The position numbers and the translations under genes were made by a program. From the NCBI RefSeq assembly GCF_965363235.1, contig NC_134841.1, forward strand, positions 74,589,723 through 74,653,722: a DNA stretch of 64,000 bases, given 5' to 3'. Position 1 is the first letter of the stretch. Each line of letters starts with the position of its first letter. Origin of the DNA: Mytilus galloprovincialis (taxonomy: Eukaryota). Shown piece by piece: positions 4,030-37,214 of this stretch. The notes under the pieces were generated by a model. That model had not been told where the DNA came from. It did not search any database and saw only the letters and a program-made list of their open reading frames with translations.

Positions 4030-4724
4030 TCTCAACAAACTTCCCAGATTAACAACACATTTGGTACTTCTCGGCATATTTCTACGGCAATGTTCCGAAC
4101 CAGACCTAGCTCATTTTAAAAGATATTGACCTGGACTACTCCTTCCTTAAATATTTTTTTGTGATCCGGGCACCTCGGCCATAGTAAGGATTCAAAGTTG
4201 TGTTTTAACGAACTTTTCATTTCAACCACACAATCGGTACTTTTCGGCATCTACCTACGGCAAAGTTCCGAACCGGACCTAGCTCATTTTAAAGGTATTA
4301 ACCCAAGCTATTCCCCACTTAAATATTTTTCTGGGATCCGGGCCCGTCTGGCCACCACAGAGGTTCAAAGTTGCCAATTTACGTATTTTCCATATCAACC
4401 ACACATTCGGTACTCCTCGACATATCCCTACGGCAAAGTTCCGAACCGGACCTAGCTCATTTCAAAGGTATTGATCCAAGCTATTTGCCAGTCAAATATT
4501 TTTCTGGAATCCGGGCCCGTCTGGCCACCACAGAGGTTCAAAGGTGCCCCTTAACGTAATTTTCCGTATTAACCATATGCATACATTCGGTACTTTTCGG
4601 CATATACCAACGGCAAAGTTCCGAACCGGACCTAGCTCATTTTAAAGGTATTGACCCAAGCTATTCCCCACTTAAATATTTTTCTGGGATCCGGGCCCGT
4701 CTGGCCACCACAGAGGTTCAAAGT
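4030..4724 (+). repeat. Short array (~4 monomers) of the ~175-bp satellite; distal monomers diverged, proximal ones near-identical to the big arrays
   Basis: Repeating cggcaaagttccgaaccggacctagctcatttyaaaggtattgaYccaagctattYcc...ttttctgggatccgggcccgtctggccaccacagaggttcaaag. Overlapping ORFs 4198-4455 and 4371-4559 translate to the same peptides as the ORFs in the large arrays. Confidence 0.85.
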
Positions 4725-5355
4725 CGTTTTAGGGTGGTCACCGTCATTTAAGCAGTCTCTGGTAGGTGTTGATTATTAATTTCTTTTCTTTTTTGGCTTT
4801 CCATAAGTATTTCTATGTATATTTCTATATGTTTCTGAAGTAATTGGATTGTGTTTCATATTTTATATATTAAATTACATCTTTGGTGAATCCTCTGTAA
4901 TGTTTTATTGATAAAAATCTATATAACATAAAGACAAATATACAACTTGTATCAGGGTTTATATTCGAGGACAACGAAAATTTATGGCAGCCTGAAGGGG
5001 TCATAGAATGGTATCTTTTCCCTCAGGCTTTATAGTGATTTTCAACTAAATTTAAATATTGAACCGACGGCTAGCAGTCGGTTGGATATTGAATATTAAT
5101 TATCGAATGTCAAATAAAGGACAGATTGCTTACATACATATTTAAAACGGAATTAAATGCTTTAGAAATTACCAGAAACCGTGAAATTGTCGATTCCGCT
5201 GTTAGATTGCATTTAACTAAGATTTAGCGATTTTTGGAACGTTTGAGTCTCACGCAGTTTTTTGGTTTTTAGACATATCGTCAAAATTGGCTGCTGGAAA
5301 AAAGTAGCTGCTATCTTGATTGGCCGATAAAAGTGGCTGCCAGCTTGAGTCTGGT
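4725..5355 (+). mobile_element. Conserved ~620-bp satellite-flanking module, copy 1 (candidate terminus of a satellite-carrying Helitron/MgE-like element)
   Basis: The same sequence (agtcgt(t/c)ttagggtggtcaccgtcatttaagcagtctctggtag ... gtggctgccagcttgagtctggt) recurs at 44695-45333 (+) and reverse-complemented at 12464-13100. It is always joined to the satellite at the identical junction. It contains the palindrome aaccgacggctagcagtcggtt. Confidence 0.6.
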
Positions 5356-6214: not shown

Positions 6215-6367
6215 CAGAAGAGGATTTAGGGGGTCATGGTACCCGTCCCCTTTTTGTGGGAAAAAAAGATTATTATTTCGGAATCACTGAAGCATGACTG
6301 GACCCCCCCCCCCTTTAATAGCAGTCAGTGGGCCACCCATTATGGAAATTTCTGGATCTGCCTCTGG
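6215..6367 (+). mobile_element. MITE-like element, copy A (same family as the insertion at 9836-9995)
   Basis: Shares ...ggatttaggggg...gggaaaaaa...ggaatcactgaagc(a/g)tgactgga...cagtcagtgggcc...tatgRaaatttctggatc(t/c)gcc(t/a)ctgg with copy B. Terminal inverted repeat approx CCAGAGGCRGAT. Internal poly-C/G runs. Confidence 0.5.
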
Positions 6368-6384
6368 TATAAAATGTATACTTA

Positions 6385-6575
6385 ATGTTAATAAGAAAAC
6401 TATCCAACACAGTCTCCGTATTAGGCATGAAATGTTAATAATAAAACTATCCAACACAGTCTCCATATTAGGCATGAAATGTTAATAATAAAACTATCCA
6501 ACACAGTCTCCATATAAGGCATGAAATATTAATAAGAAAACTATCCAACACAGGCTCCATATAAGGCGGATTTAA
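6385..6575. repeat. ~49-bp tandem repeat, ~3.8 copies
   Basis: The unit taataaNaaaactatccaacacagtctccRtatWaggcatgaaatRt is repeated head-to-tail. Confidence 0.75.
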
Positions 6576-6960: not shown

Positions 6961-8850
6961 TATCTCTGGGCAGTGGTGATTGTAGAACGAGCTTACTTTG
7001 TTTTAAAACATTGCTACGATAAGGGTGATGATTTAACTATTAATCGCAATGCCCAATATTTCATGTTTTCAGCTTTAAGTGGCCTCTGACTTGACGTGGC
7101 TCTCCCCTTCTAAAAAAAACCAAAACCAAACCCAAACAAACCTTCAATTGGTTTCGGACCGTGAAGCGGTTTGTTGCACTTTCATGCCAACTAGGGATAT
7201 CAATGTATCGAATATTTCAGAGTCATTGCATACCATGACCTAAAGGCTATTTGTTTTTAGTATTCCGTTACATTTTCAAATGAACGTTCGTATTGATGTC
7301 TATATAATATATACATAGACAGCTTCCTTTATAGCGTTATGTGTGTGTGTGTGTGTGTGTGAATCGTTTTATTTGTTTTTGTTATTTTGTTGAAATTATA
7401 TAATATATGTATGTCCATATATATCGTACTTAAAAATGGGGTTTAGTCAAGTCTACAGATTATATTGGTGGTGTTGTTTTATAAAAAGGTGGACACAAGT
7501 TTCATACAAAAAAAAATCATATATTACTAACGTATTCATGCTAACATTTGTGCAACAATACTATTTTTATAGTTCTAACATTCTTTTACATTTTGTCATT
7601 GAATTATGGACCGATCGAGTGTAATTTAACTTCTATTTCTCATTTGTTCTTTATGGTATGTTGACAAAGCTTTCCCAAAAATATCTTTATATGTTTCTTC
7701 ATGTTATTGCATAGTTAAATAGAAAATATTTTTAACTATAGTTTCCTTAGTTATTTTTGTCATTTTCATACATAACTGAGTTGATGTAACATTACCAGTC
7801 ATCACTAGGGATGATCGAGATATTGTACGAAATGTCCCAAATAAAAACCACATCAACAAAATAAGATGAACTCCGCACATGTCTTTCTGTTATAGAACGG
7901 ATTATAAAAGACGATTTTAATATTTCTACAATTTTAACTCTGTGAATATGTTGATTCTTTTAGGCCATATCGATCTTGAATATGATTTTTTTTTTACAGT
8001 TACAACAATATTAAATAAAAAGTAAAAGCATTGATTTTTACCGTTTTGAATAACAATAACTGGCAATATAACGTATTAAACAAGTAACTTTTCATTGAAT
8101 TTTTGAGATAAAAAAAAAGAAGAAAAAGATGCATCATGGTTAAGGATGTTCGCTCTTGTTGTTTTTAAATTTTTGTCATAAATTTTGAATTGTCGGGTTT
8201 TATCGATGTAATGCCAGTTAAAAAAAATTGCCCGCTCACCCCTACGTTTCTTTTTATAAATCTTATAAAATGCTTGTTATTTTTTCATATTTTTTTTTAA
8301 AGAAAACGTTACCAATGATAAGTGGATGAAAAATCTAGAGGGATTCATTTTCCGCCAAATTTTCAATGGCAACGAACCTTGATTCTTTTCTCCTTTTTAG
8401 CTCTATTATTTATGAACTATCAATTTGTAACGTCTTTTAAAAAGCTTGTTATTTTGAAACCGAGTAGCGAACAACATTAAAAGAGGGGGCGAAAGATACT
8501 AGGGGTACAGTCAAAATCATAAATCGAAAAAGACAAACAGACAAATAATATTATCCTGATTTAGAGTAATTTCTCGCAATTTGATTGGCTGATATTGTCC
8601 TAATAAATTTCAGTACAATTTTTTATCACGTCAATTGGAATTATCTCCCTTATTTATTACGTCAATTGAAATTATCTCCCTTATACCATTGACCTAATAA
8701 AAAAAATGAGTTGCTTTAATCATAATATTTTTTTTATTTTTCATAGTTTTAGATTAAATATCTAAAATACATTTGTTGATGTTCTAAAATTGGAATTATA
8801 ATTTCAATATAATAATATGTAATATAACAAAATCAGGATAAATTCGTTAC

Positions 8851-8978
8851 ACAGTGTTCAATTGTCCTAATACGAAATTTATCGGGTCAATAAAATTCAT
8901 ATCGGGTTTGGTTTCGCCTCACCCGATATGAATTTTATTGACCCGATAAATTCTCGTATTAGGACAATTGCACACTGT
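8851..8978. repeat. Large near-perfect palindrome (foldback): ~57-bp arms, 13-nt loop
   Basis: Left arm acagtgttcaattgtcctaatacgaaatttatcgggtcaataaaattcatatcgggt. Loop ttggtttcgcctc. Right arm is its reverse complement with 1 substitution and 1 indel. Confidence 0.75.
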
Positions 8979-9662
8979 AACTAATAGTACACAAGAAACA
9001 ACATAGAAAACTAAAGACTGAGCAACACGAACCCCTTCCTTGTGAACAGCAACCCTATCAAGGAAATCATGATAGGAAATATAAGCGCGAGAATATCGTA
9101 TCAATTGGGAGATATATACTCCGTATGCAGGCGCTACTGGAATGTTTCTACATAGAAATGGAAAGTTCACAATTGGGAAGCTGAAATCATTTCGGTTGTC
9201 GTTATGTAAGTCAAGATATGAGGCAGACTTAAATGTATCTGTTGTATTCTTTATCTCTAGTTCGATGGGATGGATGCGTTCAACATAGTCACCAAATTCT
9301 CAATTATTTAGTGTAGAGAGAACAACACCTAAAGGATATTGCTAACGTTTTATTTTTCTTCCTAAGAAGTTCCTATATGAAGTCAGTTAAATTACTCATA
9401 TCCTTTTGTAGTAGTGATAAAATATTTTTAAAATAGTCACAATAAATAAAACAAATCAGGCAAATTGCTAATCGTGTGTAAAAGGTATATTTCACTACAT
9501 GATTCACAGCTTGTAGGATATACATGCAATGAAATTTGGTAAAAAAAAATATAACGTTCTATTGAACTCTGAAATTGTTGCAATTTAGATGGATTCCAGG
9601 CCGATATCCTTTTTTTACAATACATCTTTTGCAGTTGTTAACCACGTTATCGGAACTGTGTA

Positions 9663-11506
9663 CTAACAGCGTCCGTACAATATAGGTCCACTAGCATTCG
9701 CAACTATAATTTTTTCATTCTTTACATCAAACTCGAGTCCAAAAGGATTATTAATTCCGTAATCTTTCCCAAGCAGCTTTCTTGCGTGTTTTCCATCCGA
9801 CGACAGTACAATTATACCATTGTTACCAGAAGAAGCCAGAGGCGGATTTAGGGGGGGGCAGGGGGCCCGGGCCCCCCTTTTTGGGAAAAAATGTGGTTGC
9901 TTATATAGGGAATCACTGAAGCGTGACTGGAGCGGGCCCCCTCTTAGGTCAGTCAGTGGGCCCCCACTTATGAAAATTTCTGGATCCGCCACTGGAAGCA
10001 ATATACACGTTTGAGTCTTTATCTATAGATATCCCTCGCGGACAAAGAACTGATTGATCTTTGTATTCCCACATCTTCTCTCCAGTCAATGAGCAGCATG
10101 TAACTGTATGGTGTAAGCTATTGGTATAAAATATCTTGTCTTTAGATGTTGTTATAAAACTCCAGTTTGTCAAGGTTTCGTCTTTAACCAAGGTAGAAGA
10201 GCAATTATCCAACACATTTACCTTCTGTATACCCAAGCCAGAATTACAGTATAATAAGTGGCCATCTCTGTAACATATACCGAAACAGTAACTGGTTGTC
10301 TTTATCGTGCTTTCAATTGAAATTTGTTAAAATGTTGATGATTGGAATTTGATTGGAAAATTGAAATGTAACAGCAACCGTCTTGTCATCGATACAAGTA
10401 ACATCTAATGGGTAGGAGCTTGACAATGATATGTAATTCTTTAAGGTTCCATCTTTGTTTAAGATCAGAAGACGTTGTTGTTTGTAGCCTAACAGAAAGA
10501 TATCTCCCGTACTAGAAAAAGAACACCCTCTGACACCAGTAAAGTTTTCCAATGTCATGTTGATATCATTAATATTGGTAGTTGTAGGTGATGCATGATG
10601 AATAGTTATAATCTGTGCTTGTTTGTCATTCTCAGTCTGCAAAACCACCAACGGAGAACTCGATTCAACAGATATTGAACAAAATGAAGTTACAGTAGAC
10701 AATACGTCGGATAGCTTGTCCTCAATGTTATAGTTCAAGTCTATCTTCTGTGAACTACCATCCTCAAATAATGACTGCATTAATATTTCATGTTTCTTAA
10801 TTTCTGTTTCAATCATTTTACTCCCAAGAAATGCCTGTAGGTCTGACGCATATTCTTTGACAGCTGACATATTAGTTTGCAATATATCAATATTTTCCGT
10901 ATGTTTAGCAAGTTTTCTCAGTAAATCTTCTATTTGTGCTTTAACTTTCTCTTCTGCAGAATATAAATCCTGATGTATTAGTTGTTCTAACCCGTCAAGG
11001 TGCGCGTTAATTTTATTATGAACCTTTTTTATTTCATCGCAAATTTTCTGCCTTTGATTCTGGATTTCTTCAAGATTTTGTTTCCGATCTTTTACAACTT
11101 TCTCGGCATTTATTTTGATATATTTCAGATTTTCATCAAGACTCTTCAATAAGACTGAAGTCTTTGCCGTTTGTATGACATTCTCCAGCGACAATATCCC
11201 AACACATTCAGCATGGTTGGACTGAATACACAGTGGACAACCGATACTTTCATGTTGCGGACAATACATCTGAAATTTTCTGTCATGCTGTGAACAGTAT
11301 GGTGATATTTTTGCTATTGAGGGAGGTAATTGTTTATAGTTGTCGACAGATATAACATCATGGTTACGTGAGGCTTTCGATGCATTCTGATACTGCAGAC
11401 ATTGAGATCAGAGTCCTTCGTCACATTCAGGGCACCAGTAGTCAGCATTTGTTGTCGTGTGCTGAGACTCACAAATACCACACGAAACTGTGCTCGATGA
11501 TGCCAT
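9663..11506 (-). pseudogene. TRIM-like (B-box1, B-box2, coiled-coil, NHL repeats; no RING) gene carrying three lesions; likely pseudogene
   Basis: Minus-strand frame from ATG at 11506: MASSSTVSCGICESQHTTTNADYWCPECDEGL[TGA]SQCLQYQNASKASRNHDVISVDNYKQLPPSIAKISPYCSQHDRKFQMYCPQHESIGCPLCIQSNHAEC... is B-box1 then B-box2. A long coiled-coil follows (ORF 10313-11269), then NHL-like repeats (..GICYRDGHLLYCNSGLGIQKVNV.., ..GISIDKDSNVYIASSG.., ..NNGIIVLSSDGKHARKLLGKDYGINNPFGLEFDVKNEKIIVANASGPILYGRC*). Lesions: (1) in-frame TGA at 11408-11410 where a B-box zinc-ligand Cys is expected. (2) A 1-nt frameshift near 10313-10326. (3) The MITE at 9836-9995. Confidence 0.6.
9836..9995 (+). mobile_element. MITE insertion (copy B, 160 bp) inside the NHL-repeat coding region of the TRIM-like gene; 3-bp target-site duplication AAG
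   Basis: Element ccagaggcggatttagggggg...cagtcagtgggcccccacttatgaaaatttctggatccgccactgg. It is flanked by aag at 9833-9835 and 9996-9998. Element plus one TSD is 163 nt (3n+1). Removing it fuses the upstream and downstream NHL reading frames exactly (..NVYIASSG|NNGIIVLSSDGK..). Confidence 0.65.
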
Positions 11507-11829
11507 TGAAGTCTTGATCTGCTAAAAATAAGACAATGTCCATTAGTCAAATTGTAGTTGCAGTTTGTTTGATGTGTACATTTATGTACATGTATACACA
11601 TCCATTGCTTAAGTGGTTGATTTATATATCACAGTTCTTGTTTCCTCAATTATCATATCTGGTCCTTTAAAATTGATAATACTAGTTGTGAAACAATGGC
11701 GTTTAACAAAAATATAAACCGTATAGTAAATTGTATATCATTTAGGCCTATGAACTTGCTTACCAGAAGAACTTGATCAAGATTTTTGAAGGCGTAAATA
11801 TGGTATCAATTAGAACAATGCCGTTGTAT

Positions 11830-11937
11830 CAATCTAATTAAAAACCGATCTCTCATCGCTCCTGTTTCTGATATGTCGAGCTACCACGCGACATATCAGA
11901 AACAGGAGCAATGAGAGATCGGTTTTTAATTAGATTG
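11830..11937. repeat. Near-perfect hairpin/foldback: 48-bp arms (1 mismatch), 11-nt loop, ~320 bp upstream of the TRIM-like start codon
   Basis: caatctaattaaaaaccgatctctcatcgctcctgtttctgatatgtcg | agctaccacgc | gacatatcagaaacaggagcaatgagagatcggtttttaattagattg. Confidence 0.75.
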
Positions 11938-12463
11938 ACTTTTGGATAAGATGGGTTTTAGTCAGCACAAACATGTTCACACAAAAGGCAAAGGCGCATA
12001 ATAAAAATCGACCGATAATGAATATCAAAGGGGCATAAGCTACCAACTCAACAATAAAAACAATCGGATCTTTTTTTCAAACATTTATGAAAGTGGAGTA
12101 AAGAAATAATATTTCGCTATTAGCAGTCTGTTTTGTTCAATTAAAGGCTAAAATATATCGCTGATGTATAATTGACTTGCAAGTCAACAGTTCATGCTAA
12201 TTTGGACCTTCGTGGAGATCGGTTGTGCATGTGTTTACCATGTAGTTCATTAATTGAAAGAATGTCAACATTAAAAAGTAAAACAAAGGAGACACCGTCA
12301 CACCTAGTGTTTATTTTTCAGAGTAAAAGATTCAATTGATTGCATGCTTCTTAATTGTCATCTGAATTTTTATCTGCTAAATGACAAAACATAACTTCAG
12401 ACTACCAGGCGCCTGTATCGCTATCTAGCTTTTCAAAACAATCACTGAAAGAGGAATATTTTC

Positions 12464-13100
12464 ACCAGACTCAAGCTGGCAGCCACTTTCATCGGCCAAT
12501 CAAGATAGCAGCCACTTTTTTCCAGCAGCCAATTTTGACGATATGTCTAAAAACCAAAAAACTGCGTGAGGCTCAAACGTTCCAAAAATCGCTAAATCTT
12601 AGTTAAATGCAATCTAACAGCGGAAATCGACAATTTCACGGTTTCTGCTAATTTCTAAAGCATTTCATTCCGTTTTAAATATGTATGTAAGCGATCTGTC
12701 CTTTATTTGACATTCGATAATTGATATTCAATATCCAACCGACTGCTAGCCGTCGGTTCAATATTTCAATTTAGTTGAAAATCACTATAAAGCCTGAGAG
12801 AAAAGATACCATTTTATGACCCCTTCAAGCTGTCATAAATTTTCGTTGTCCTCGAATATAAACCCTGATACAAGTTGTATATTTGTCTTTATGTTATATA
12901 GATTTTTATCAATAAAACATTACAGAGGATTCACCAAAGATGTAATTTAATATATAAAATATGAAACAAAATCCAATTACTCCAGAAACATATAGAAATA
13001 TACATAGAAATACTTATGGAAAGCCAAAAAAAAAAAAAGAAATTAATAGTGAACACCTACCAGAGACTGCTTAAATGACGGTGACCACCCTAAGACGACT
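12464..13100 (-). mobile_element. Satellite-flanking module, copy 2 (reverse complement of 4725-5355)
   Basis: accagactcaagctggcagccacttt...ctaccagagactgcttaaatgacggtgaccaccctaagacgac is the reverse complement of the module at 4725-5355 and 44695-45333. It is joined to the satellite at the same junction. Confidence 0.6.
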
Positions 13101-16100
13101 TTGGACCTCTGTGGTGGCCAGACGGGCCCGGATCCCAGAAAAATATTTAAGTGGCAAATAGCTTGGATCAATACCTTTGAAATGAGCTAGGTCCGGTTCG
13201 GAACTTTGCCGTAGGGATATGTCGAGGAGTACCGAATGTGTGGTTGATATGGAAAATACGTAAATTGGCAACTTTGAACCTCTGTGGTGGCCAGACGGGC
13301 CCGGATCCCAGAAAAATATTTAAGTGGGGAATAGCTTGGGTCAATACCTTTAAAATGAGCTAGGTCCGGTTCGGAACTTTGCCGTTGGTATATGCCGAAA
13401 AGTACCGAATGTATGCATATGGTTAATACGGAAAATTACGTTATGGGGCACCTTTGAACCTCTGTGGTGGCCAGACGGGCCCGGATCCCAGAAACATATT
13501 TAAGTGGCAAATAGCTTGGATCAATACCTTTGAAATGAGCTAGGTCCGGTTCGGAACTTTGCCGTAGGGATATGTCGAGGAGTACCGAATGTGTGGTTGA
13601 TATGGAAAATACGTAAATGGGCATTTTGAAGCTCTGTGGTGGCCAGACGGGCCCGGATCCCAGAAAAATATTTAAGTGGCAAATAGCTTGGATCAATACC
13701 TTTGAAATGAGCTAGGTCCGGTTCGGAACTTTGCCGTAGGGATATGTCGAGGAGTACCGAATGTGTGGTTGATATGGAAAATACGTAAATTGGCAACTTT
13801 GAACCTCTGTGGTGGCCAGACGGGCCCGGATCCCAGAAAAATATTTAAGTGGGGAATAGCTTGGGTCAATACCTTTAAAATGAGCTAGGTCCGGTTCGGA
13901 ACTTTGCCGTTGGTATATGCCGAAAAGTACCGAATGTATGCATATGGTTAATACGGAAAATTACGTTATGGGGCACCTTTGAACCTCTGTGGTGGCCAGA
14001 CGGGCCCGGATCCCAGAAACATATTTAAGTGGCAAATAGCTTGGATCAATACCTTTGAAATGAGCTAGGTCCGGTTCGGAACTTTGCCGTAGGGATATGT
14101 CGAGGAGTACCGAATGTGTGGTTGATATGGAAAATACGTAAATGGGCATTTTGAAGCTCTGTGGTGGCCAGACGGGCCCGGATCCCAGAAAAATATTTAA
14201 GTGGCAAATAGCTTGGATCAATACCTTTGAAATGAGCTAGGTCCGGTTCGGAACTTTGCCGTAGGGATATGTCGAGGAGTACCGAATGTGTGGTTGATAT
14301 GGAAAATACGTAAATTGGCAACTTTGAACCTCTGTGGTGGCCAGACGGGCCCGGATCCCAGAAAAATATTTAAGTGGGGAATAGCTTGGGTCAATACCTT
14401 TAAAATGAGCTAGGTCCGGTTCGGAACTTTGCCGTTGGTATATGCCGAAAAGTACCGAATGTATGCATATAGTTAATACGGAAAATTACGTTATGGGGCA
14501 CCTTTGAACCTCTGTGGTGGCCAGACGGGCCCGGATCCCAGAAACATATTTAAGTGGCAAATAGCTTGGATCAATACCTTTGAAATGAGCTAGGTCCGGT
14601 TCGGAACTTTGCCGTAGGGATATGTCGAGGAGTACCGAATGTGTGGTTGATATGGAAAATACGTAAATGGGCATTTTGAAGCTCTGTGGTGGCCAGACGG
14701 GCCCGGATCCCAGAAAAATATTTAAGTGGCAAATAGCTTGGATCAATACCTTTGAAATGAGCTAGGTCCGGTTCGGAACTTTGCCGTAGGGATATGTCGA
14801 GGAGTACCGAATGTGTGGTTGATATGGAAAATACGTAAATTGGCAACTTTGAACCTCTGTGGTGGCCAGACGGGCCCGGATCCCAGAAAAATATTTAAGT
14901 GGGGAATAGCTTGGGTCAATACCTTTAAAATGAGCTAGGTCCGGTTCGGAACTTTGCCGTTGGTATATGCCGAAAAGTACCGAATGTATGCATATGGTTA
15001 ATACGGAAAATTACGTTATGGGGCACCTTTGAACCTCTGTGGTGGCCAGACGGGCCCGGATCCCAGAAACATATTTAAGTGGCAAATAGCTTGGATCAAT
15101 ACCTTTGAAATGAGCTAGGTCCGGTTCGGAACTTTGCCGTAGGGATATGTCGAGGAGTACCGAATGTGTGGTTGATATGGAAAATACGTAAATGGGCATT
15201 TTGAAGCTCTGTGGTGGCCAGACGGGCCCGGATCCCAGAAAAATATTTAAGTGGCAAATAGCTTGGATCAATACCTTTGAAATGAGCTAGGTCCGGTTCG
15301 GAACTTTGCCGTAGGGATATGTCGAGGAGTACCGAATGTGTGGTTGATATGGAAAATACGTAAATTGGCAACTTTGAACCTCTGTGGTGGCCAGACGGGC
15401 CCGGATCCCAGAAAAATATTTAAGTGGGGAATAGCTTGGGTCAATACCTTTAAAATGAGCTAGGTCCGGTTCGGAACTTTGCCGTTGGTATATGCCGAAA
15501 AGTACCGAATGTATGCATATGGTTAATACGGAAAATTACGTTATGGGGCACCTTTGAACCTCTGTGGTGGCCAGACGGGCCCGGATCCCAGAAACATATT
15601 TAAGTGGCAAATAGCTTGGATCAATACCTTTGAAATGAGCTAGGTCCGGTTCGGAACTTTGCCGTAGGGATATGTCGAGGAGTACCGAATGTGTGGTTGA
15701 TATGGAAAATACGTAAATGGGCATTTTGAAGCTCTGTGGTGGCCAGACGGGCCCGGATCCCAGAAAAATATTTAAGTGGCAAATAGCTTGGATCAATACC
15801 TTTGAAATGAGCTAGGTCCGGTTCGGAACTTTGCCGTAGGGATATGTCGAGGAGTACCGAATGTGTGGTTGATATGGAAAATACGTAAATTGGCAACTTT
15901 GAACCTCTGTGGTGGCCAGACGGGCCCGGATCCCAGAAAAATATTTAAGTGGGGAATAGCTTGGGTCAATACCTTTAAAATGAGCTAGGTCCGGTTCGGA
16001 ACTTTGCCGTTGGTATATGCCGAAAAGTACCGAATGTATGCATATAGTTAATACGGAAAATTACGTTATGGGGCACCTTTGAACCTCTGTGGTGGCCAGA

Positions 16101-19100
16101 CGGGCCCGGATCCCAGAAACATATTTAAGTGGCAAATAGCTTGGATCAATACCTTTGAAATGAGCTAGGTCCGGTTCGGAACTTTGCCGTAGGGATATGT
16201 CGAGGAGTACCGAATGTGTGGTTGATATGGAAAATACGTAAATGGGCATTTTGAAGCTCTGTGGTGGCCAGACGGGCCCGGATCCCAGAAAAATATTTAA
16301 GTGGCAAATAGCTTGGATCAATACCTTTGAAATGAGCTAGGTCCGGTTCGGAACTTTGCCGTAGGGATATGTCGAGGAGTACCGAATGTGTGGTTGATAT
16401 GGAAAATACGTAAATTGGCAACTTTGAACCTCTGTGGTGGCCAGACGGGCCCGGATCCCAGAAAAATATTTAAGTGGGGAATAGCTTGGGTCAATACCTT
16501 TAAAATGAGCTAGGTCCGGTTCGGAACTTTGCCGTTGGTATATGCCGAAAAGTACCGAATGTATGCATATGGTTAATACGGAAAATTACGTTATGGGGCA
16601 CCTTTGAACCTCTGTGGTGGCCAGACGGGCCCGGATCCCAGAAACATATTTAAGTGGCAAATAGCTTGGATCAATACCTTTGAAATGAGCTAGGTCCGGT
16701 TCGGAACTTTGCCGTAGGGATATGTCGAGGAGTACCGAATGTGTGGTTGATATGGAAAATACGTAAATGGGCATTTTGAAGCTCTGTGGTGGCCAGACGG
16801 GCCCGGATCCCAGAAAAATATTTAAGTGGCAAATAGCTTGGATCAATACCTTTGAAATGAGCTAGGTCCGGTTCGGAACTTTGCCGTAGGGATATGTCGA
16901 GGAGTACCGAATGTGTGGTTGATATGGAAAATACGTAAATTGGCAACTTTGAACCTCTGTGGTGGCCAGACGGGCCCGGATCCCAGAAAAATATTTAAGT
17001 GGGGAATAGCTTGGGTCAATACCTTTAAAATGAGCTAGGTCCGGTTCGGAACTTTGCCGTTGGTATATGCCGAAAAGTACCGAATGTATGCATATGGTTA
17101 ATACGGAAAATTACGTTATGGGGCACCTTTGAACCTCTGTGGTGGCCAGACGGGCCCGGATCCCAGAAACATATTTAAGTGGCAAATAGCTTGGATCAAT
17201 ACCTTTGAAATGAGCTAGGTCCGGTTCGGAACTTTGCCGTAGGGATATGTCGAGGAGTACCGAATGTGTGGTTGATATGGAAAATACGTAAATGGGCATT
17301 TTGAAGCTCTGTGGTGGCCAGACGGGCCCGGATCCCAGAAAAATATTTAAGTGGCAAATAGCTTGGATCAATACCTTTGAAATGAGCTAGGTCCGGTTCG
17401 GAACTTTGCCGTAGGGATATGTCGAGGAGTACCGAATGTGTGGTTGATATGGAAAATACGTAAATTGGCAACTTTGAACCTCTGTGGTGGCCAGACGGGC
17501 CCGGATCCCAGAAAAATATTTAAGTGGGGAATAGCTTGGGTCAATACCTTTAAAATGAGCTAGGTCCGGTTCGGAACTTTGCCGTTGGTATATGCCGAAA
17601 AGTACCGAATGTATGCATATGGTTAATACGGAAAATTACGTTATGGGGCACCTTTGAACCTCTGTGGTGGCCAGACGGGCCCGGATCCCAGAAACATATT
17701 TAAGTGGCAAATAGCTTGGATCAATACCTTTGAAATGAGCTAGGTCCGGTTCGGAACTTTGCCGTAGGGATATGTCGAGGAGTACCGAATGTGTGGTTGA
17801 TATGGAAAATACGTAAATGGGCATTTTGAAGCTCTGTGGTGGCCAGACGGGCCCGGATCCCAGAAAAATATTTAAGTGGCAAATAGCTTGGATCAATACC
17901 TTTGAAATGAGCTAGGTCCGGTTCGGAACTTTGCCGTAGGGATATGTCGAGGAGTACCGAATGTGTGGTTGATATGGAAAATACGTAAATTGGCAACTTT
18001 GAACCTCTGTGGTGGCCAGACGGGCCCGGATCCCAGAAAAATATTTAAGTGGGGAATAGCTTGGGTCAATACCTTTAAAATGAGCTAGGTCCGGTTCGGA
18101 ACTTTGCCGTTGGTATATGCCGAAAAGTACCGAATGTATGCATATAGTTAATACGGAAAATTACGTTATGGGGCACCTTTGAACCTCTGTGGTGGCCAGA
18201 CGGGCCCGGATCCCAGAAACATATTTAAGTGGCAAATAGCTTGGATCAATACCTTTGAAATGAGCTAGGTCCGGTTCGGAACTTTGCCGTAGGGATATGT
18301 CGAGGAGTACCGAATGTGTGGTTGATATGGAAAATACGTAAATGGGCATTTTGAAGCTCTGTGGTGGCCAGACGGGCCCGGATCCCAGAAAAATATTTAA
18401 GTGGCAAATAGCTTGGATCAATACCTTTGAAATGAGCTAGGTCCGGTTCGGAACTTTGCCGTAGGGATATGTCGAGGAGTACCGAATGTGTGGTTGATAT
18501 GGAAAATACGTAAATTGGCAACTTTGAACCTCTGTGGTGGCCAGACGGGCCCGGATCCCAGAAAAATATTTAAGTGGGGAATAGCTTGGGTCAATACCTT
18601 TAAAATGAGCTAGGTCCGGTTCGGAACTTTGCCGTTGGTATATGCCGAAAAGTACCGAATGTATGCATATGGTTAATACGGAAAATTACGTTATGGGGCA
18701 CCTTTGAACCTCTGTGGTGGCCAGACGGGCCCGGATCCCAGAAACATATTTAAGTGGCAAATAGCTTGGATCAATACCTTTGAAATGAGCTAGGTCCGGT
18801 TCGGAACTTTGCCGTAGGGATATGTCGAGGAGTACCGAATGTGTGGTTGATATGGAAAATACGTAAATGGGCATTTTGAAGCTCTGTGGTGGCCAGACGG
18901 GCCCGGATCCCAAAAATATTTAAGTGGCAAATAGCTTGGATCAATACCTTTGAAATGAGCTAGGTCCGGTTCGGAACTTTGCCGTAGGGATATGTCGAGG
19001 AGTACCGAATGTGTGGTTGATATGGAAAATACGTAAATTGGCAACTTTGAACCTCTGTGGTGGCCAGACGGGCCCGGATCCCAGAAAAATATTTAAGTGG

Positions 19101-22100
19101 GGAATAGCTTGGGTCAATACCTTTAAAATGAGCTAGGTCCGGTTCGGAACTTTGCCGTTGGTATATGCCGAAAAGTACCGAATGTATGCATATGGTTAAT
19201 ACGGAAAATTACGTTATGGGGCACCTTTGAACCTCTGTGGTGGCCAGACGGGCCCGGATCCCAGAAACATATTTAAGTGGCAAATAGCTTGGATCAATAC
19301 CTTTGAAATGAGCTAGGTCCGGTTCGGAACTTTGCCGTAGGGATATGTCGAGGAGTACCGAATGTGTGGTTGATATGGAAAATACGTAAATGGGCATTTT
19401 GAAGCTCTGTGGTGGCCAGACGGGCCCGGATCCCAGAAAAATATTTAAGTGGCAAATAGCTTGGATCAATACCTTTGAAATGAGCTAGGTCCGGTTCGGA
19501 ACTTTGCCGTAGGGATATGTCGAGGAGTACCGAATGTGTGGTTGATATGGAAAATACGTAAATTGGCAACTTTGAACCTCTGTGGTGGCCAGACGGGCCC
19601 GGATCCCAGAAAAATATTTAAGTGGGGAATAGCTTGGGTCAATACCTTTAAAATGAGCTAGGTCCGGTTCGGAACTTTGCCGTTGGTATATGCCGAAAAG
19701 TACCGAATGTATGCATATGGTTAATACGGAAAATTACGTTATGGGGCACCTTTGAACCTCTGTGGTGGCCAGACGGGCCCGGATCCCAGAAACATATTTA
19801 AGTGGCAAATAGCTTGGATCAATACCTTTGAAATGAGCTAGGTCCGGTTCGGAACTTTGCCGTAGGGATATGTCGAGGAGTACCGAATGTGTGGTTGATA
19901 TGGAAAATACGTAAATGGGCATTTTGAAGCTCTGTGGTGGCCAGACGGGCCCGGATCCCAGAAAAATATTTAAGTGGCAAATAGCTTGGATCAATACCTT
20001 TGAAATGAGCTAGGTCCGGTTCGGAACTTTGCCGTAGGGATATGTCGAGGAGTACCGAATGTGTGGTTGATATGGAAAATACGTAAATTGGCAACTTTGA
20101 ACCTCTGTGGTGGCCAGACGGGCCCGGATCCCAGAAAAATATTTAAGTGGGGAATAGCTTGGGTCAATACCTTTAAAATGAGCTAGGTCCGGTTCGGAAC
20201 TTTGCCGTTGGTATATGCCGAAAAGTACCGAATGTATGCATATAGTTAATACGGAAAATTACGTTATGGGGCACCTTTGAACCTCTGTGGTGGCCAGACG
20301 GGCCCGGATCCCAGAAACATATTTAAGTGGCAAATAGCTTGGATCAATACCTTTGAAATGAGCTAGGTCCGGTTCGGAACTTTGCCGTAGGGATATGTCG
20401 AGGAGTACCGAATGTGTGGTTGATATGGAAAATACGTAAATGGGCATTTTGAAGCTCTGTGGTGGCCAGACGGGCCCGGATCCCAGAAAAATATTTAAGT
20501 GGCAAATAGCTTGGATCAATACCTTTGAAATGAGCTAGGTCCGGTTCGGAACTTTGCCGTAGGGATATGTCGAGGAGTACCGAATGTGTGGTTGATATGG
20601 AAAATACGTAAATTGGCAACTTTGAACCTCTGTGGTGGCCAGACGGGCCCGGATCCCAGAAAAATATTTAAGTGGGGAATAGCTTGGGTCAATACCTTTA
20701 AAATGAGCTAGGTCCGGTTCGGAACTTTGCCGTTGGTATATGCCGAAAAGTACCGAATGTATGCATATGGTTAATACGGAAAATTACGTTATGGGGCACC
20801 TTTGAACCTCTGTGGTGGCCAGACGGGCCCGGATCCCAGAAACATATTTAAGTGGCAAATAGCTTGGATCAATACCTTTGAAATGAGCTAGGTCCGGTTC
20901 GGAACTTTGCCGTAGGGATATGTCGAGGAGTACCGAATGTGTGGTTGATATGGAAAATACGTAAATGGGCATTTTGAAGCTCTGTGGTGGCCAGACGGGC
21001 CCGGATCCCAGAAAAATATTTAAGTGGCAAATAGCTTGGATCAATACCTTTGAAATGAGCTAGGTCCGGTTCGGAACTTTGCCGTAGGGATATGTCGAGG
21101 AGTACCGAATGTGTGGTTGATATGGAAAATACGTAAATTGGCAACTTTGAACCTCTGTGGTGGCCAGACGGGCCCGGATCCCAGAAAAATATTTAAGTGG
21201 GGAATAGCTTGGGTCAATACCTTTAAAATGAGCTAGGTCCGGTTCGGAACTTTGCCGTTGGTATATGCCGAAAAGTACCGAATGTATGCATATGGTTAAT
21301 ACGGAAAATTACGTTATGGGGCACCTTTGAACCTCTGTGGTGGCCAGACGGGCCCGGATCCCAGAAACATATTTAAGTGGCAAATAGCTTGGATCAATAC
21401 CTTTGAAATGAGCTAGGTCCGGTTCGGAACTTTGCCGTAGGGATATGTCGAGGAGTACCGAATGTGTGGTTGATATGGAAAATACGTAAATGGGCATTTT
21501 GAAGCTCTGTGGTGGCCAGACGGGCCCGGATCCCAGAAAAATATTTAAGTGGCAAATAGCTTGGATCAATACCTTTGAAATGAGCTAGGTCCGGTTCGGA
21601 ACTTTGCCGTAGGGATATGTCGAGGAGTACCGAATGTGTGGTTGATATGGAAAATACGTAAATTGGCAACTTTGAACCTCTGTGGTGGCCAGACGGGCCC
21701 GGATCCCAGAAAAATATTTAAGTGGGGAATAGCTTGGGTCAATACCTTTAAAATGAGCTAGGTCCGGTTCGGAACTTTGCCGTTGGTATATGCCGAAAAG
21801 TACCGAATGTATGCATATGGTTAATACGGAAAATTACGTTATGGGGCACCTTTGAACCTCTGTGGTGGCCAGACGGGCCCGGATCCCAGAAACATATTTA
21901 AGTGGCAAATAGCTTGGATCAATACCTTTGAAATGAGCTAGGTCCGGTTCGGAACTTTGCCGTAGGGATATGTCGAGGAGTACCGAATGTGTGGTTGATA
22001 TGGAAAATACGTAAATGGGCATTTTGAAGCTCTGTGGTGGCCAGACGGGCCCGGATCCCAGAAAAATATTTAAGTGGCAAATAGCTTGGATCAATACCTT

Positions 22101-25100
22101 TGAAATGAGCTAGGTCCGGTTCGGAACTTTGCCGTAGGGATATGTCGAGGAGTACCGAATGTGTGGTTGATATGGAAAATACGTAAATTGGCAACTTTGA
22201 ACCTCTGTGGTGGCCAGACGGGCCCGGATCCCAGAAAAATATTTAAGTGGGGAATAGCTTGGGTCAATACCTTTAAAATGAGCTAGGTCCGGTTCGGAAC
22301 TTTGCCGTTGGTATATGCCGAAAAGTACCGAATGTATGCATATGGTTAATACGGAAAATTACGTTATGGGGCACCTTTGAACCTCTGTGGTGGCCAGACG
22401 GGCCCGGATCCCAGAAACATATTTAAGTGGCAAATAGCTTGGATCAATACCTTTGAAATGAGCTAGGTCCGGTTCGGAACTTTGCCGTAGGGATATGTCG
22501 AGGAGTACCGAATGTGTGGTTGATATGGAAAATACGTAAATGGGCATTTTGAAGCTCTGTGGTGGCCAGACGGGCCCGGATCCCAGAAAAATATTTAAGT
22601 GGCAAATAGCTTGGATCAATACCTTTGAAATGAGCTAGGTCCGGTTCGGAACTTTGCCGTAGGGATATGTCGAGGAGTACCGAATGTGTGGTTGATATGG
22701 AAAATACGTAAATTGGCAACTTTGAACCTCTGTGGTGGCCAGACGGGCCCGGATCCCAGAAAAATATTTAAGTGGGGAATAGCTTGGGTCAATACCTTTA
22801 AAATGAGCTAGGTCCGGTTCGGAACTTTGCCGTTGGTATATGCCGAAAAGTACCGAATGTATGCATATAGTTAATACGGAAAATTACGTTATGGGGCACC
22901 TTTGAACCTCTGTGGTGGCCAGACGGGCCCGGATCCCAGAAACATATTTAAGTGGCAAATAGCTTGGATCAATACCTTTGAAATGAGCTAGGTCCGGTTC
23001 GGAACTTTGCCGTAGGGATATGTCGAGGAGTACCGAATGTGTGGTTGATATGGAAAATACGTAAATGGGCATTTTGAAGCTCTGTGGTGGCCAGACGGGC
23101 CCGGATCCCAGAAAAATATTTAAGTGGCAAATAGCTTGGATCAATACCTTTGAAATGAGCTAGGTCCGGTTCGGAACTTTGCCGTAGGGATATGTCGAGG
23201 AGTACCGAATGTGTGGTTGATATGGAAAATACGTAAATTGGCAACTTTGAACCTCTGTGGTGGCCAGACGGGCCCGGATCCCAGAAAAATATTTAAGTGG
23301 GGAATAGCTTGGGTCAATACCTTTAAAATGAGCTAGGTCCGGTTCGGAACTTTGCCGTTGGTATATGCCGAAAAGTACCGAATGTATGCATATGGTTAAT
23401 ACGGAAAATTACGTTATGGGGCACCTTTGAACCTCTGTGGTGGCCAGACGGGCCCGGATCCCAGAAACATATTTAAGTGGCAAATAGCTTGGATCAATAC
23501 CTTTGAAATGAGCTAGGTCCGGTTCGGAACTTTGCCGTAGGGATATGTCGAGGAGTACCGAATGTGTGGTTGATATGGAAAATACGTAAATGGGCATTTT
23601 GAAGCTCTGTGGTGGCCAGACGGGCCCGGATCCCAGAAAAATATTTAAGTGGCAAATAGCTTGGATCAATACCTTTGAAATGAGCTAGGTCCGGTTCGGA
23701 ACTTTGCCGTAGGGATATGTCGAGGAGTACCGAATGTGTGGTTGATATGGAAAATACGTAAATTGGCAACTTTGAACCTCTGTGGTGGCCAGACGGGCCC
23801 GGATCCCAGAAAAATATTTAAGTGGGGAATAGCTTGGGTCAATACCTTTAAAATGAGCTAGGTCCGGTTCGGAACTTTGCCGTTGGTATATGCCGAAAAG
23901 TACCGAATGTATGCATATGGTTAATACGGAAAATTACGTTATGGGGCACCTTTGAACCTCTGTGGTGGCCAGACGGGCCCGGATCCCAGAAACATATTTA
24001 AGTGGCAAATAGCTTGGATCAATACCTTTGAAATGAGCTAGGTCCGGTTCGGAACTTTGCCGTAGGGATATGTCGAGGAGTACCGAATGTGTGGTTGATA
24101 TGGAAAATACGTAAATGGGCATTTTGAAGCTCTGTGGTGGCCAGACGGGCCCGGATCCCAGAAAAATATTTAAGTGGCAAATAGCTTGGATCAATACCTT
24201 TGAAATGAGCTAGGTCCGGTTCGGAACTTTGCCGTAGGGATATGTCGAGGAGTACCGAATGTGTGGTTGATATGGAAAATACGTAAATTGGCAACTTTGA
24301 ACCTCTGTGGTGGCCAGACGGGCCCGGATCCCAGAAAAATATTTAAGTGGGGAATAGCTTGGGTCAATACCTTTAAAATGAGCTAGGTCCGGTTCGGAAC
24401 TTTGCCGTTGGTATATGCCGAAAAGTACCGAATGTATGCATATGGTTAATACGGAAAATTACGTTATGGGGCACCTTTGAACCTCTGTGGTGGCCAGACG
24501 GGCCCGGATCCCAGAAACATATTTAAGTGGCAAATAGCTTGGATCAATACCTTTGAAATGAGCTAGGTCCGGTTCGGAACTTTGCCGTAGGGATATGTCG
24601 AGGAGTACCGAATGTGTGGTTGATATGGAAAATACGTAAATGGGCATTTTGAAGCTCTGTGGTGGCCAGACGGGCCCGGATCCCAGAAAAATATTTAAGT
24701 GGCAAATAGCTTGGATCAATACCTTTGAAATGAGCTAGGTCCGGTTCGGAACTTTGCCGTAGGGATATGTCGAGGAGTACCGAATGTGTGGTTGATATGG
24801 AAAATACGTAAATTGGCAACTTTGAACCTCTGTGGTGGCCAGACGGGCCCGGATCCCAGAAAAATATTTAAGTGGGGAATAGCTTGGGTCAATACCTTTA
24901 AAATGAGCTAGGTCCGGTTCGGAACTTTGCCGTTGGTATATGCCGAAAAGTACCGAATGTATGCATATGGTTAATACGGAAAATTACGTTATGGGGCACC
25001 TTTGAACCTCTGTGGTGGCCAGACGGGCCCGGATCCCAGAAACATATTTAAGTGGCAAATAGCTTGGATCAATACCTTTGAAATGAGCTAGGTCCGGTTC

Positions 25101-28100
25101 GGAACTTTGCCGTAGGGATATGTCGAGGAGTACCGAATGTGTGGTTGATATGGAAAATACGTAAATGGGCATTTTGAAGCTCTGTGGTGGCCAGACGGGC
25201 CCGGATCCCAGAAAAATATTTAAGTGGCAAATAGCTTGGATCAATACCTTTGAAATGAGCTAGGTCCGGTTCGGAACTTTGCCGTAGGGATATGTCGAGG
25301 AGTACCGAATGTGTGGTTGATATGGAAAATACGTAAATTGGCAACTTTGAACCTCTGTGGTGGCCAGACGGGCCCGGATCCCAGAAAAATATTTAAGTGG
25401 GGAATAGCTTGGGTCAATACCTTTAAAATGAGCTAGGTCCGGTTCGGAACTTTGCCGTTGGTATATGCCGAAAAGTACCGAATGTATGCATATAGTTAAT
25501 ACGGAAAATTACGTTATGGGGCACCTTTGAACCTCTGTGGTGGCCAGACGGGCCCGGATCCCAGAAACATATTTAAGTGGCAAATAGCTTGGATCAATAC
25601 CTTTGAAATGAGCTAGGTCCGGTTCGGAACTTTGCCGTAGGGATATGTCGAGGAGTACCGAATGTGTGGTTGATATGGAAAATACGTAAATGGGCATTTT
25701 GAAGCTCTGTGGTGGCCAGACGGGCCCGGATCCCAGAAAAATATTTAAGTGGCAAATAGCTTGGATCAATACCTTTGAAATGAGCTAGGTCCGGTTCGGA
25801 ACTTTGCCGTAGGGATATGTCGAGGAGTACCGAATGTGTGGTTGATATGGAAAATACGTAAATTGGCAACTTTGAACCTCTGTGGTGGCCAGACGGGCCC
25901 GGATCCCAGAAAAATATTTAAGTGGGGAATAGCTTGGGTCAATACCTTTAAAATGAGCTAGGTCCGGTTCGGAACTTTGCCGTTGGTATATGCCGAAAAG
26001 TACCGAATGTATGCATATGGTTAATACGGAAAATTACGTTATGGGGCACCTTTGAACCTCTGTGGTGGCCAGACGGGCCCGGATCCCAGAAACATATTTA
26101 AGTGGCAAATAGCTTGGATCAATACCTTTGAAATGAGCTAGGTCCGGTTCGGAACTTTGCCGTAGGGATATGTCGAGGAGTACCGAATGTGTGGTTGATA
26201 TGGAAAATACGTAAATGGGCATTTTGAAGCTCTGTGGTGGCCAGACGGGCCCGGATCCCAGAAAAATATTTAAGTGGCAAATAGCTTGGATCAATACCTT
26301 TGAAATGAGCTAGGTCCGGTTCGGAACTTTGCCGTAGGGATATGTCGAGGAGTACCGAATGTGTGGTTGATATGGAAAATACGTAAATTGGCAACTTTGA
26401 ACCTCTGTGGTGGCCAGACGGGCCCGGATCCCAGAAAAATATTTAAGTGGGGAATAGCTTGGGTCAATACCTTTAAAATGAGCTAGGTCCGGTTCGGAAC
26501 TTTGCCGTTGGTATATGCCGAAAAGTACCGAATGTATGCATATGGTTAATACGGAAAATTACGTTATGGGGCACCTTTGAACCTCTGTGGTGGCCAGACG
26601 GGCCCGGATCCCAGAAACATATTTAAGTGGCAAATAGCTTGGATCAATACCTTTGAAATGAGCTAGGTCCGGTTCGGAACTTTGCCGTAGGGATATGTCG
26701 AGGAGTACCGAATGTGTGGTTGATATGGAAAATACGTAAATGGGCATTTTGAAGCTCTGTGGTGGCCAGACGGGCCCGGATCCCAGAAAAATATTTAAGT
26801 GGCAAATAGCTTGGATCAATACCTTTGAAATGAGCTAGGTCCGGTTCGGAACTTTGCCGTAGGGATATGTCGAGGAGTACCGAATGTGTGGTTGATATGG
26901 AAAATACGTAAATTGGCAACTTTGAACCTCTGTGGTGGCCAGACGGGCCCGGATCCCAGAAAAATATTTAAGTGGGGAATAGCTTGGGTCAATACCTTTA
27001 AAATGAGCTAGGTCCGGTTCGGAACTTTGCCGTTGGTATATGCCGAAAAGTACCGAATGTATGCATATGGTTAATACGGAAAATTACGTTATGGGGCACC
27101 TTTGAACCTCTGTGGTGGCCAGACGGGCCCGGATCCCAGAAACATATTTAAGTGGCAAATAGCTTGGATCAATACCTTTGAAATGAGCTAGGTCCGGTTC
27201 GGAACTTTGCCGTAGGGATATGTCGAGGAGTACCGAATGTGTGGTTGATATGGAAAATACGTAAATGGGCATTTTGAAGCTCTGTGGTGGCCAGACGGGC
27301 CCGGATCCCAGAAAAATATTTAAGTGGCAAATAGCTTGGATCAATACCTTTGAAATGAGCTAGGTCCGGTTCGGAACTTTGCCGTAGGGATATGTCGAGG
27401 AGTACCGAATGTGTGGTTGATATGGAAAATACGTAAATTGGCAACTTTGAACCTCTGTGGTGGCCAGACGGGCCCGGATCCCAGAAAAATATTTAAGTGG
27501 GGAATAGCTTGGGTCAATACCTTTAAAATGAGCTAGGTCCGGTTCGGAACTTTGCCGTTGGTATATGCCGAAAAGTACCGAATGTATGCATATGGTTAAT
27601 ACGGAAAATTACGTTATGGGGCACCTTTGAACCTCTGTGGTGGCCAGACGGGCCCGGATCCCAGAAACATATTTAAGTGGCAAATAGCTTGGATCAATAC
27701 CTTTGAAATGAGCTAGGTCCGGTTCGGAACTTTGCCGTAGGGATATGTCGAGGAGTACCGAATGTGTGGTTGATATGGAAAATACGTAAATGGGCATTTT
27801 GAAGCTCTGTGGTGGCCAGACGGGCCCGGATCCCAGAAAAATATTTAAGTGGCAAATAGCTTGGATCAATACCTTTGAAATGAGCTAGGTCCGGTTCGGA
27901 ACTTTGCCGTAGGGATATGTCGAGGAGTACCGAATGTGTGGTTGATATGGAAAATACGTAAATTGGCAACTTTGAACCTCTGTGGTGGCCAGACGGGCCC
28001 GGATCCCAGAAAAATATTTAAGTGGGGAATAGCTTGGGTCAATACCTTTAAAATGAGCTAGGTCCGGTTCGGAACTTTGCCGTTGGTATATGCCGAAAAG

Positions 28101-31687: not shown

Positions 31688-31733
31688 ACGCCAGACGCGC
31701 GTTTCGTCTACATAAGACTCATCAGTGACGCTC
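31688..31733 (-). ncRNA. Hammerhead ribozyme, minimal type-I topology (copy 1)
   Basis: Minus strand: GAGCGUCA-CUGAUGA-GUC-UUAUGUA-GAC-GAAAC-GCGC-GUC|UGGCGU. Conserved CUGAUGA and GAAA cores are present. Stem II is GUC/GAC. Short helix III is AC/GU. GUC cleavage triplet. Helix I is GCGUCA with UGGCGU (6 bp including 2 G-U pairs). Confidence 0.6.
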
Positions 31734-32039
31734 AGATCAAAATATTTATAAAGCCAAACAAGTACAAAGTTGAAGAGCATTTAGGATCCAAAATTCCAAA
31801 AAGTTGTGCCAAATACGGCTAAGGTAATCTATTCCTGGGATAAGAAAATCCTTAGTTTTTCGAAAAATTCAGTTTTGTAAACGGGAAATTTATAAAAATG
31901 ACCACAATATTGATATTCATGTCAACACCAAAGTGTTGACTACTGGGCTGGTAATACCCGCGGGGACGAAACGTCCACCAGCAGTGGCATCGACCCAGTG
32001 GTGTATATAGTTATCAAAGTACCAGGATTATAATTTTGT

Positions 32040-34395: not shown

Positions 34396-34424
34396 TTCAT
34401 AATAATCATGTCAGAAAATACACA

Positions 34425-37192: not shown

Positions 37193-37214
37193 CATTCGGA
37201 ATTCCTAAGAATAT

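Follow-up and report, generated by a model that had tools for sequence, protein, structure and literature searches.

On the minus strand of the Mytilus galloprovincialis DNA analysed here (64,000 nucleotides of contig NC_134841.1, assembly GCF_965363235.1; this whole stretch is called the window below and is numbered from its first letter), positions 9663 to 11506 hold the disrupted coding region of a gene for a RING-less protein with two B-boxes, a coiled coil and a C-terminal NHL propeller. A reading made from the letters alone (the sequence-only reading) had described a TRIM-like gene here with three inactivating lesions, an in-frame TGA, a 1-nt frameshift and a miniature inverted-repeat transposable element (MITE), and every element that it listed was found where it had been placed. 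The parts of the gene and the changes in it are as follows; P0001 is a paralogue from M. coruscus.

9663-11506, minus strand: disrupted coding region, a single coding exon from the ATG at 11504-11506 to the TAG at 9663-9665, for a RING-less B-box1/B-box2/coiled-coil/NHL protein
11360-11482, minus strand: B-box1, residues 9-49, C-x2-C-x12-C-x2-C-x4-C-x2-C-x3-H-x8-H in the family; the window copy lacks two of the eight ligands
11204-11296, minus strand: B-box2, residues 71-101, C-x2-H-x7-C-x2-H-x4-C-x2-C-x4-H-x2-C, with every ligand kept
10763-11188, minus strand: coiled-coil region, residues 107-248, from the helices of the P0001 model and profile matches
9666-10573, minus strand: six-bladed NHL beta-propeller, from about residue 312 to the C-terminus, broken by the frameshift and the MITE
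11408-11410, minus strand: lesion 1, in-frame TGA at codon 33, which is TGC (Cys, a zinc ligand) in both orthologs
11387-11389, minus strand: private damaging missense change H40Q, codon 40 CAC to CAG (at 11387), in an invariant B-box1 zinc ligand 21 nt downstream of the TGA
10544-10545, minus strand: point where 9 bp are deleted in frame in the window alone; the orthologs have ..AAC AAATTTGGT TTT.. (N-KFG-F)
10313-10322, minus strand: lesion 2, +1 frameshift with an extra T in the TTT run 10320-10322 and a premature TGA at 10313-10315
9837-9994, minus strand: lesion 3, MITE insertion 158 bp long; with the flanking C/G pair taken as part of the inverted ends it spans 160 bp (9836-9995)
11507-11535, minus strand: polypyrimidine tract and AG (TTATTTTTAG), ending 16 nt before the ATG and kept in both orthologs (L001 and L002, below)

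Intact relatives of the disrupted gene have 560 codons, and in the window the corresponding reading is spread over three frames. The first runs from the ATG (MASSSTVSCGICESQH...CPECDEGL) to the TGA at 11408-11410 and reopens after it until the TGA at 10313-10315; the second, shifted by one base and open past a TAA at 10327-10329, reads ..QISIESTIKTTSYCFGICYRDGHLLYC...DSNVYIASSGG; and the third, ..GNNGIIVLSSDGKHARKLLG...GPILYGRC, closes at the TAG at 9663-9665. A G+C-rich non-coding segment (9837-9994) lies between the second and third pieces. The longest open reading frame (ORF) in the 64-kb window is a remnant of 318 amino acids (aa) at 10313-11269, which contains part of B-box2, the coiled coil and two blades of the propeller.

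For protein searches a repaired translation was made: the TGA was read as Cys, the insert was taken out and the frames were joined. This query matches 193 proteins, and the best of these are 560-aa Mytilus proteins at E = 2.9e-286 (79% identical in M. coruscus and 78% in M. californianus), a value that excludes chance resemblance; two shorter protein models are closer, P0004 of M. galloprovincialis (94%) and P0026 of M. edulis (92%). These matches identify the host as a Mytilus mussel, which bears out the bivalve context of the sequence-only reading. The profile check of the conceptual translation that the sequence-only reading had proposed gave matches, in the family alignment, to both the B-box models and NHL/propeller families. 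Pfam places ANCHR-like_BBOX at residues 9-50 and zf-B_box at residues 69-99 of the window copy, with scores slightly under the gathering thresholds (23.5 vs 27 and 22.7 vs 24.1). Both B-box models are matched by six of nine aligned sequences, the earlier reconstruction of the window protein included (best E 4.8e-06 for ANCHR-like_BBOX and 3e-06 for zf-B_box), while the Pfam NHL model matches three of the nine and SBBP eight. Over 93 homologues the B-box1 ligand columns C25, C28, C33, H40 and H49 are invariant and C9, C12 and C36 are at least 90% conserved; in B-box2, C71, H74, C82, H85, C90, H98 and C101 are invariant and C93 nearly so. A profile of the family finds, among structures in the PDB, the NHL domains of TRIM2 (1.1e-10) and TRIM3 (1.4e-9) as well as Thin, TRIM71 and Brat, and it finds B-box/coiled-coil chains of TRIM25 and TIF1-beta (TRIM28) at E of about 1e-3.

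The fold was analysed on the AlphaFold model of the 80%-identical paralogue P0001 and not on the broken window sequence. This model has a mean pLDDT of 81.6, which exceeds 92 from about residue 310 to the C-terminus, and it contains two small zinc-finger-like modules, helices at 107-116 and 118-248, and 24 strands; between coil and propeller it has two short strands (255-261 and 276-282) and a disordered linker (284-304). Foldseek matches this model best to NHL domains, those of Brat, Thin, Mei-P26, TRIM2 and TRIM71, at probability 1.0 and with target TM scores of 0.71-0.79. Thus the architecture proposed from the letters, B-box1, B-box2, coiled coil and NHL, is borne out by Pfam, the family profile, the AlphaFold model and Foldseek, but the coiled coil had been put at about 200 aa and its continuous helix is only about 140 aa long (residues 107-248). 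The Pfam scan gave no RING family except a weak zf_RING-like match (E = 0.025) that overlaps B-box1, and the ORF and all close homologues begin MASSSTVSCGxC, with B-box1 from residue 9 and acceptor-like non-coding sequence upstream of the ATG. No filamin/Ig domain was found at E up to 1 in the window protein, nor among the family members. The name TRIM2/3/71-like therefore holds for the NHL fold and for the B-box/coiled-coil part, but with neither RING nor filamin the family protein is TRIM-like and not a true TRIM2/3/71 member; since the RING is absent, an autonomous E3-ligase function cannot be assumed for it.

We determined the polarity of the lesions from a three-way alignment of the window with two orthologous loci, one from M. 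galloprovincialis (L001; GCA_900618805.1, the locus encoding P0004, gene at L001:10001-11683) and one from the M. edulis reference (L002; GCA_963676685.2, chromosome OY782959.1, the locus encoding P0026, gene at L002:9748-11420), and we took as outgroups the paralogue loci of M. coruscus (L003) and M. californianus (L004). Window and orthologs run colinear through about 6 kb of flanking sequence, and across about 2.5 kb of gene and flanks the window has a nucleotide identity of 96.3% to L001 and 97.5% to L002. The identity of its coding sequence to the orthologs is 96.8-97.9% (96.8% to L001), and one of these is an intact ORF, which supports the earlier description of a fresh pseudogene. In so large a family, with 193 matches, a paralogue might conceivably be mistaken for an ortholog, and the window copy would then be an old dead paralogue or a processed copy and not a recently inactivated ortholog of a live gene. 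To this we give almost no credence, because the non-coding flanks are colinear with both orthologs for kilobases on either side at 93-99% identity, the acceptor-like site upstream is conserved, neither a poly(A) tail nor a retrocopy boundary is present, the private substitutions number only 14 in 1617 aligned coding sites, and the next-best proteins are at most 80% identical. A processed or old paralogue was rejected on account of the colinear flanks.

At all three lesion sites L001 and L002 are undamaged (TGC, AAAATCA and an empty MITE site), and so the three lesions are derived and private to the window haplotype. The first of them, the TGA at 11408-11410, arose by a C-to-A substitution in codon 33, whose Cys is a B-box1 zinc ligand and is invariant in the 93 homologues; both orthologs have TGC. 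The adjoining codon 32 carries a private silent change from CTG to CTC, and H40Q follows shortly downstream. A TGA in place of a Cys codon is the classic selenocysteine/cysteine pattern, and by recoding of this kind, by a programmed frameshift or by use of the surviving 318-aa ORF (11269-10313, the longest of the 64-kb window) as a truncated product the locus might still make a functional protein. We regard this as highly improbable. Between 8500 and 12500 Rfam gave, at E up to 1, no SECIS-like element and no other family able to recode TGA, and at codon 33 the orthologs and 93 of 93 homologues use Cys, on which grounds the selenocysteine reading was rejected. Slippery-site or pseudoknot evidence was likewise not seen, and each of the three lesions would need a rescue of its own. 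As for the 318-aa ORF, it starts inside B-box2 after two of the ligands and ends after two of the six blades, so that, judged on the model, its propeller cannot close.

The second lesion lies at AAATTTCA in the window, where both orthologs have AAAATCA, a net gain of 1 nt; in wider context the window reads TTAACAAATTTCAATTGA and the orthologs TTAACAAAATCAAT(T/A)GA. The extra T at 10320-10322 falls inside the range of about 10313-10326 to which the frameshift had been assigned from the letters. The main frame is open only up to the TGA at 10313-10315 and the +1 frame only after the TAA at 10327-10329, and in eight of eight aligned homologues the same point reads ILTK-xIES. It maps to the loop between propeller strands 8 and 9 (K396 of P0001).

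The third lesion interrupts the codons ..YIASSG / NNGIIV.. at the turn between strands 19 and 20, in the fifth four-strand group of the P0001 model; this mapping agrees with the earlier placing of a MITE inside an NHL blade. The insertion at 9837-9994 is a MITE, as its inverted ends, target duplication, small non-coding body and several copies show. Its ends, CCAGwGGCGGAT, are 12 nt long and 92% complementary (CCAGAGGCGGAT / ATCCGCCACTGG), its body is G+C-rich, 158 bp long and without an ORF, and the target GCTTC is duplicated at 9832-9836 and 9995-9999 (or CTT, the duplication being 3 or 5 bp according to register). The exact junction is that of the empty site ATATTGCTTCTTCTGG turned into ATATTGCTTC[158 bp]GCTTCTTCTGG, and the site is empty not only in L001 and L002 but also in the paralogue loci L003 (M. 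coruscus) and L004 (M. californianus). The element shares with known MITEs a non-coding length of 158-160 bp, 12-nt terminal inverted repeats, a short target duplication, multiple copies and a precise empty site; its copies are counted here within the window, and its ends and the 3- or 5-bp duplication do not by themselves assign it to a superfamily. An intron was considered and rejected, since the insertion ends have no GT...AG borders and the empty sites are precise. The other copies in the window are a full-length one at 6215-6366 (75% identical) and a partial one at 53794-53832. The former is a diverged copy held in a stretch (6231-6563) that is an insertion relative to L001, and it directly adjoins a 47-bp tandem repeat (3.9 units, 6384-6567); this insertion may be a tandem-repeat-containing MITE.

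Two changes in the gene go beyond those that the sequence-only reading had listed, namely H40Q and the 9-bp in-frame deletion, the latter located at the entry to the first propeller strand. The search for an intact allele elsewhere that had been suggested gave a positive answer: at L001:10001-11683 all 560 codons are open without interruption. The M. edulis reference copy is independently broken; it has lost 2 nt behind codon 114 and 27 nt in frame, and it has gained 2 nt near codon 505. Window and L002 have no lesion in common. The public gene models at both orthologous loci are artefacts. P0004 (VDI46797.1, 471 aa) is mis-spliced and skips both B-boxes even though the 560-codon ORF is intact, and the RefSeq model P0026 (XP_071171076.1, 403 aa) has the wrong frame at its start and terminates where the pseudogene has its second frameshift. 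Downstream of the gene each ortholog has a private insertion, of 1.1 kb in M. galloprovincialis (L001:14037-15169) and at L002:14421-21212 in M. edulis, where it holds a 1369-aa MULE/ZSWIM/Peptidase_C48 transposon-derived gene; the window sequence at the latter place is unrelated.

Substitutions were assigned to branches over 539 gap-free codons, rooted with L003 and L004, with the following counts.

Window branch: 5 synonymous, 9 non-synonymous
M. edulis branch: 7 synonymous, 11 non-synonymous
M. galloprovincialis branch: 17 synonymous, 6 non-synonymous
Stem common to window and M. edulis: 7 synonymous, 4 non-synonymous

On these rooted counts the window groups with the M. edulis reference. 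The non-synonymous to synonymous (N:S) ratio is raised on the two broken terminal branches, 20N:12S against 10N:24S on the branches of the intact gene (Fisher p = 0.013). This pattern suggests purifying selection until after the split of the window and M. edulis reference copies, followed by independent decay in both. From the lesions and the fact that they are derived, together with the architecture of the protein and the raised N:S ratio, we conclude that the locus is very probably a young, non-processed pseudogene allele of a single-coding-exon Mytilus B-box/coiled-coil/NHL gene that belongs to a large, lineage-expanded family.

Several observations weigh against this conclusion and have to be set beside it. 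The excess of non-synonymous changes on the window branch alone (9N:5S vs 10N:24S on the intact branches) has the direction that relaxed constraint predicts but reaches only p = 0.049 on small counts, and omega is about 0.45, again on small counts and below 1, which could mean either a very recent loss or some constraint that persists. The functionality of the intact L001 ORF is assumed. Neither the contig index nor a 15-billion-protein collection contains the exact 318-aa ORF, and among the matches to the repaired translation no protein is more than 95% identical to it, so that the allele is unconfirmed in other data. The window haplotype is known from one assembly only, and the single-base lesions rest on that assembly; moreover, the frameshift lies within a short A/T run (AAATTT), an error-prone context. 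It might accordingly be argued that the animal itself has an undamaged gene, that sequencing or assembly errors produced the TGA and the frameshift, and that the MITE is spliced out or part of an assembly chimera. Such an error is conceivable for the single-base lesions and implausible for the MITE, which has a clean target-site duplication and whose site is precisely empty at four other loci; this is the signature of transposition and not of mis-assembly. The ends of the MITE also lack the GT...AG borders that splicing would use. Nor does the TGA stand alone, as its substitution is accompanied by two further private substitutions within 24 bp, and the haplotype also bears H40Q and the 9-bp deletion; finally, the raised N:S ratio of the window branch is independent of the three lesions. 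An intact gene in the animal is on this evidence very unlikely.

The pseudogene allele probably formed as follows. The common ancestor of the window haplotype and the M. edulis reference copy would have had an intact gene; selection would then have relaxed, and the two lineages would have gathered different disabling mutations while the M. galloprovincialis copy stayed open. On the window haplotype there were three separate events, each of them expected to abolish the full-length product: a C-to-A substitution that turned the codon of zinc-ligand Cys33 into TGA, a one-base insertion that shifted the frame after propeller blade 2, and the transposition of a 158-bp MITE into the strand-connecting turn of blade 5. 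H40Q and the 9-bp deletion would be further decay. We infer from this that the gene lost its function and was dispensable, and the order of the events is inferred likewise. The whole is consistent with recent, repeated loss and with birth-and-death in an expanded family.

Upstream of the ATG, the polypyrimidine tract and AG are likely a splice acceptor, which would imply an upstream non-coding exon; this is inference from the sequence, in which a donor-like GGTAAG can also be read directly at about 11760-11765. Beyond both of these sites, at 11839-11928 and a little farther from the gene, lies a near-perfect palindromic hairpin with arms of about 41 nt and sub-threshold Rfam matches to mir-4773 and mir-4433 on both strands. 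Upstream of the gene the alignment of the three haplotypes breaks off precisely at this hairpin, which is thus likely to be a small foldback insertion and not a miRNA.

The pseudogene had been described as sandwiched between inverted satellite arrays. Arrays of a 172/173-bp satellite, with a monomer that holds GGGCCC and GGATCC, do flank the gene (4051-4724, 13098-28686 and 37242-44695), but they are the inward parts of two insertions with ends of about 640 bp that are missing from both orthologous haplotypes. Relative to L002, window 12461-45333 (32.9 kb) is a single insertion, with a precise empty site at about L002:8816-8822 (GAGGAATA|CTTGTGC) and AATA at both junctions. It is bounded by inverted ends of about 640 bp (12461-13100 and 44693-45333) that are 96% identical, with a satellite array inward of each, and its centre (28687-37241) contains no ORF of at least 130 aa; it looks like either a giant foldback/inverted-repeat mobile element that carries satellite or a haplotype-specific structural variant. 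The 640-bp end occurs a third time at 5355-4722 (96.7% identical), there with only 3.9 satellite monomers (4051-4724) behind it, and 4051-5355 represents the terminus of another element, which is apparently truncated. The three ends close alike in ...GCCAGCTTGAGTCTGGT, and the pseudogene thus sits on a 7.1-kb island between element ends at 5355 and 12461. Neither the satellite nor the 640-bp ends occur within 10 kb at either ortholog.

Further insertions private to the window are those at 6231-6563 (above) and 8554-8981. The latter, of 428 bp, has an 8-bp junction overlap in both orthologs, which suggests an 8-bp target duplication, and perfect inverted repeats are nested within it (one has 32-nt arms at 8876-8907 and 8921-8952); it is probably another non-autonomous DNA transposon. 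The region is structurally very dynamic, in accord with the mussel pan-genome literature (PMC7653742).

The 32.9-kb insertion begins about 950 bp upstream of the ATG, near the probable upstream exon or promoter, and by its position it could have contributed to silencing. This leads to a tentative proposal, which we think possible and well short of probable: that functional and null alleles of the gene segregate in the Mytilus edulis species complex. Several null alleles of independent origin (the window haplotype and the M. edulis reference) would then exist beside intact ones like that of M. galloprovincialis, and in this immune-type family integrity and not presence would vary; the polymorphism would perhaps have been triggered or be maintained by the 32.9-kb insertion some 950 bp upstream of the start, which would have silenced the gene first.

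How does this gene compare with known systems? With the TRIM-NHL proteins (human TRIM2, TRIM3, TRIM32 and TRIM71/LIN-41, Drosophila Brat, Mei-P26, Thin/Abba and Wech, and C. elegans NHL-2) it has in common B-box1 and B-box2, a long coiled coil and a C-terminal six-bladed NHL propeller. It differs from them in having no RING, its protein beginning with B-box1 at residue 9, in an NHL domain identity of only 15-18%, and in that the window copy is a pseudogene; it also lacks the filamin/Ig domain that TRIM2, TRIM3 and TRIM71 have between coil and NHL. Much closer are its Mytilus paralogues (P0001 of M. coruscus; P0002 and P0005 of M. californianus; P0008, P0016 and P0017 of M. edulis), which share the same 560-aa single-exon architecture at 65-80% full-length identity and are open reading frames, whereas the window copy has a stop, a frameshift and a MITE. 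They are annotated variously as 'B box-type domain-containing protein', 'TRIM71-like', 'protein wech-like' and 'transcription intermediary factor 1-alpha-like'. Many paralogues apparently lie on the chromosome of the M. edulis ortholog, with which a tandem expansion would be consistent.

A literature search for a Mytilus-specific TRIM/NHL description and for the ApaI satellite gave nothing usable. B-box-type families are among the orthogroups expanded in bivalves (PMC8382680), and in oysters an association of TRIM genes with resistance to herpesvirus has been described (PMC9437489); by analogy with that expansion and those association studies, an immune role may be supposed for the B-box/NHL family.

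The locus offers a view, at the resolution of single events, of gene death in a lineage-expanded and presumably immune-related bivalve family, and its value, a modest one, lies in the comparison of one intact ortholog with two close haplotypes that are broken by entirely different lesions. It is also a warning that automatic annotations here force gene models through or around such features (471 aa in M. galloprovincialis, 403 aa in M. edulis). The gene is of a known kind and the modes of disruption are known, with no new mechanism or type of element, and in this respect it is an ordinary young pseudogene. Its nearest counterparts at the level of the genome are the dispensable genes of the Mytilus pan-genome (Gerdol et al. 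2020, PMC7653742), which it resembles in belonging to a lineage-expanded family, in its large haplotype-specific structural variants and in a functional state that differs by haplotype. Unlike those genes it is present in three of three haplotypes, so that what varies is its integrity (intact or null) and not its presence or absence, a pattern in keeping with turnover by birth and death and with the strong structural variation that earlier work has found in mussel genomes.

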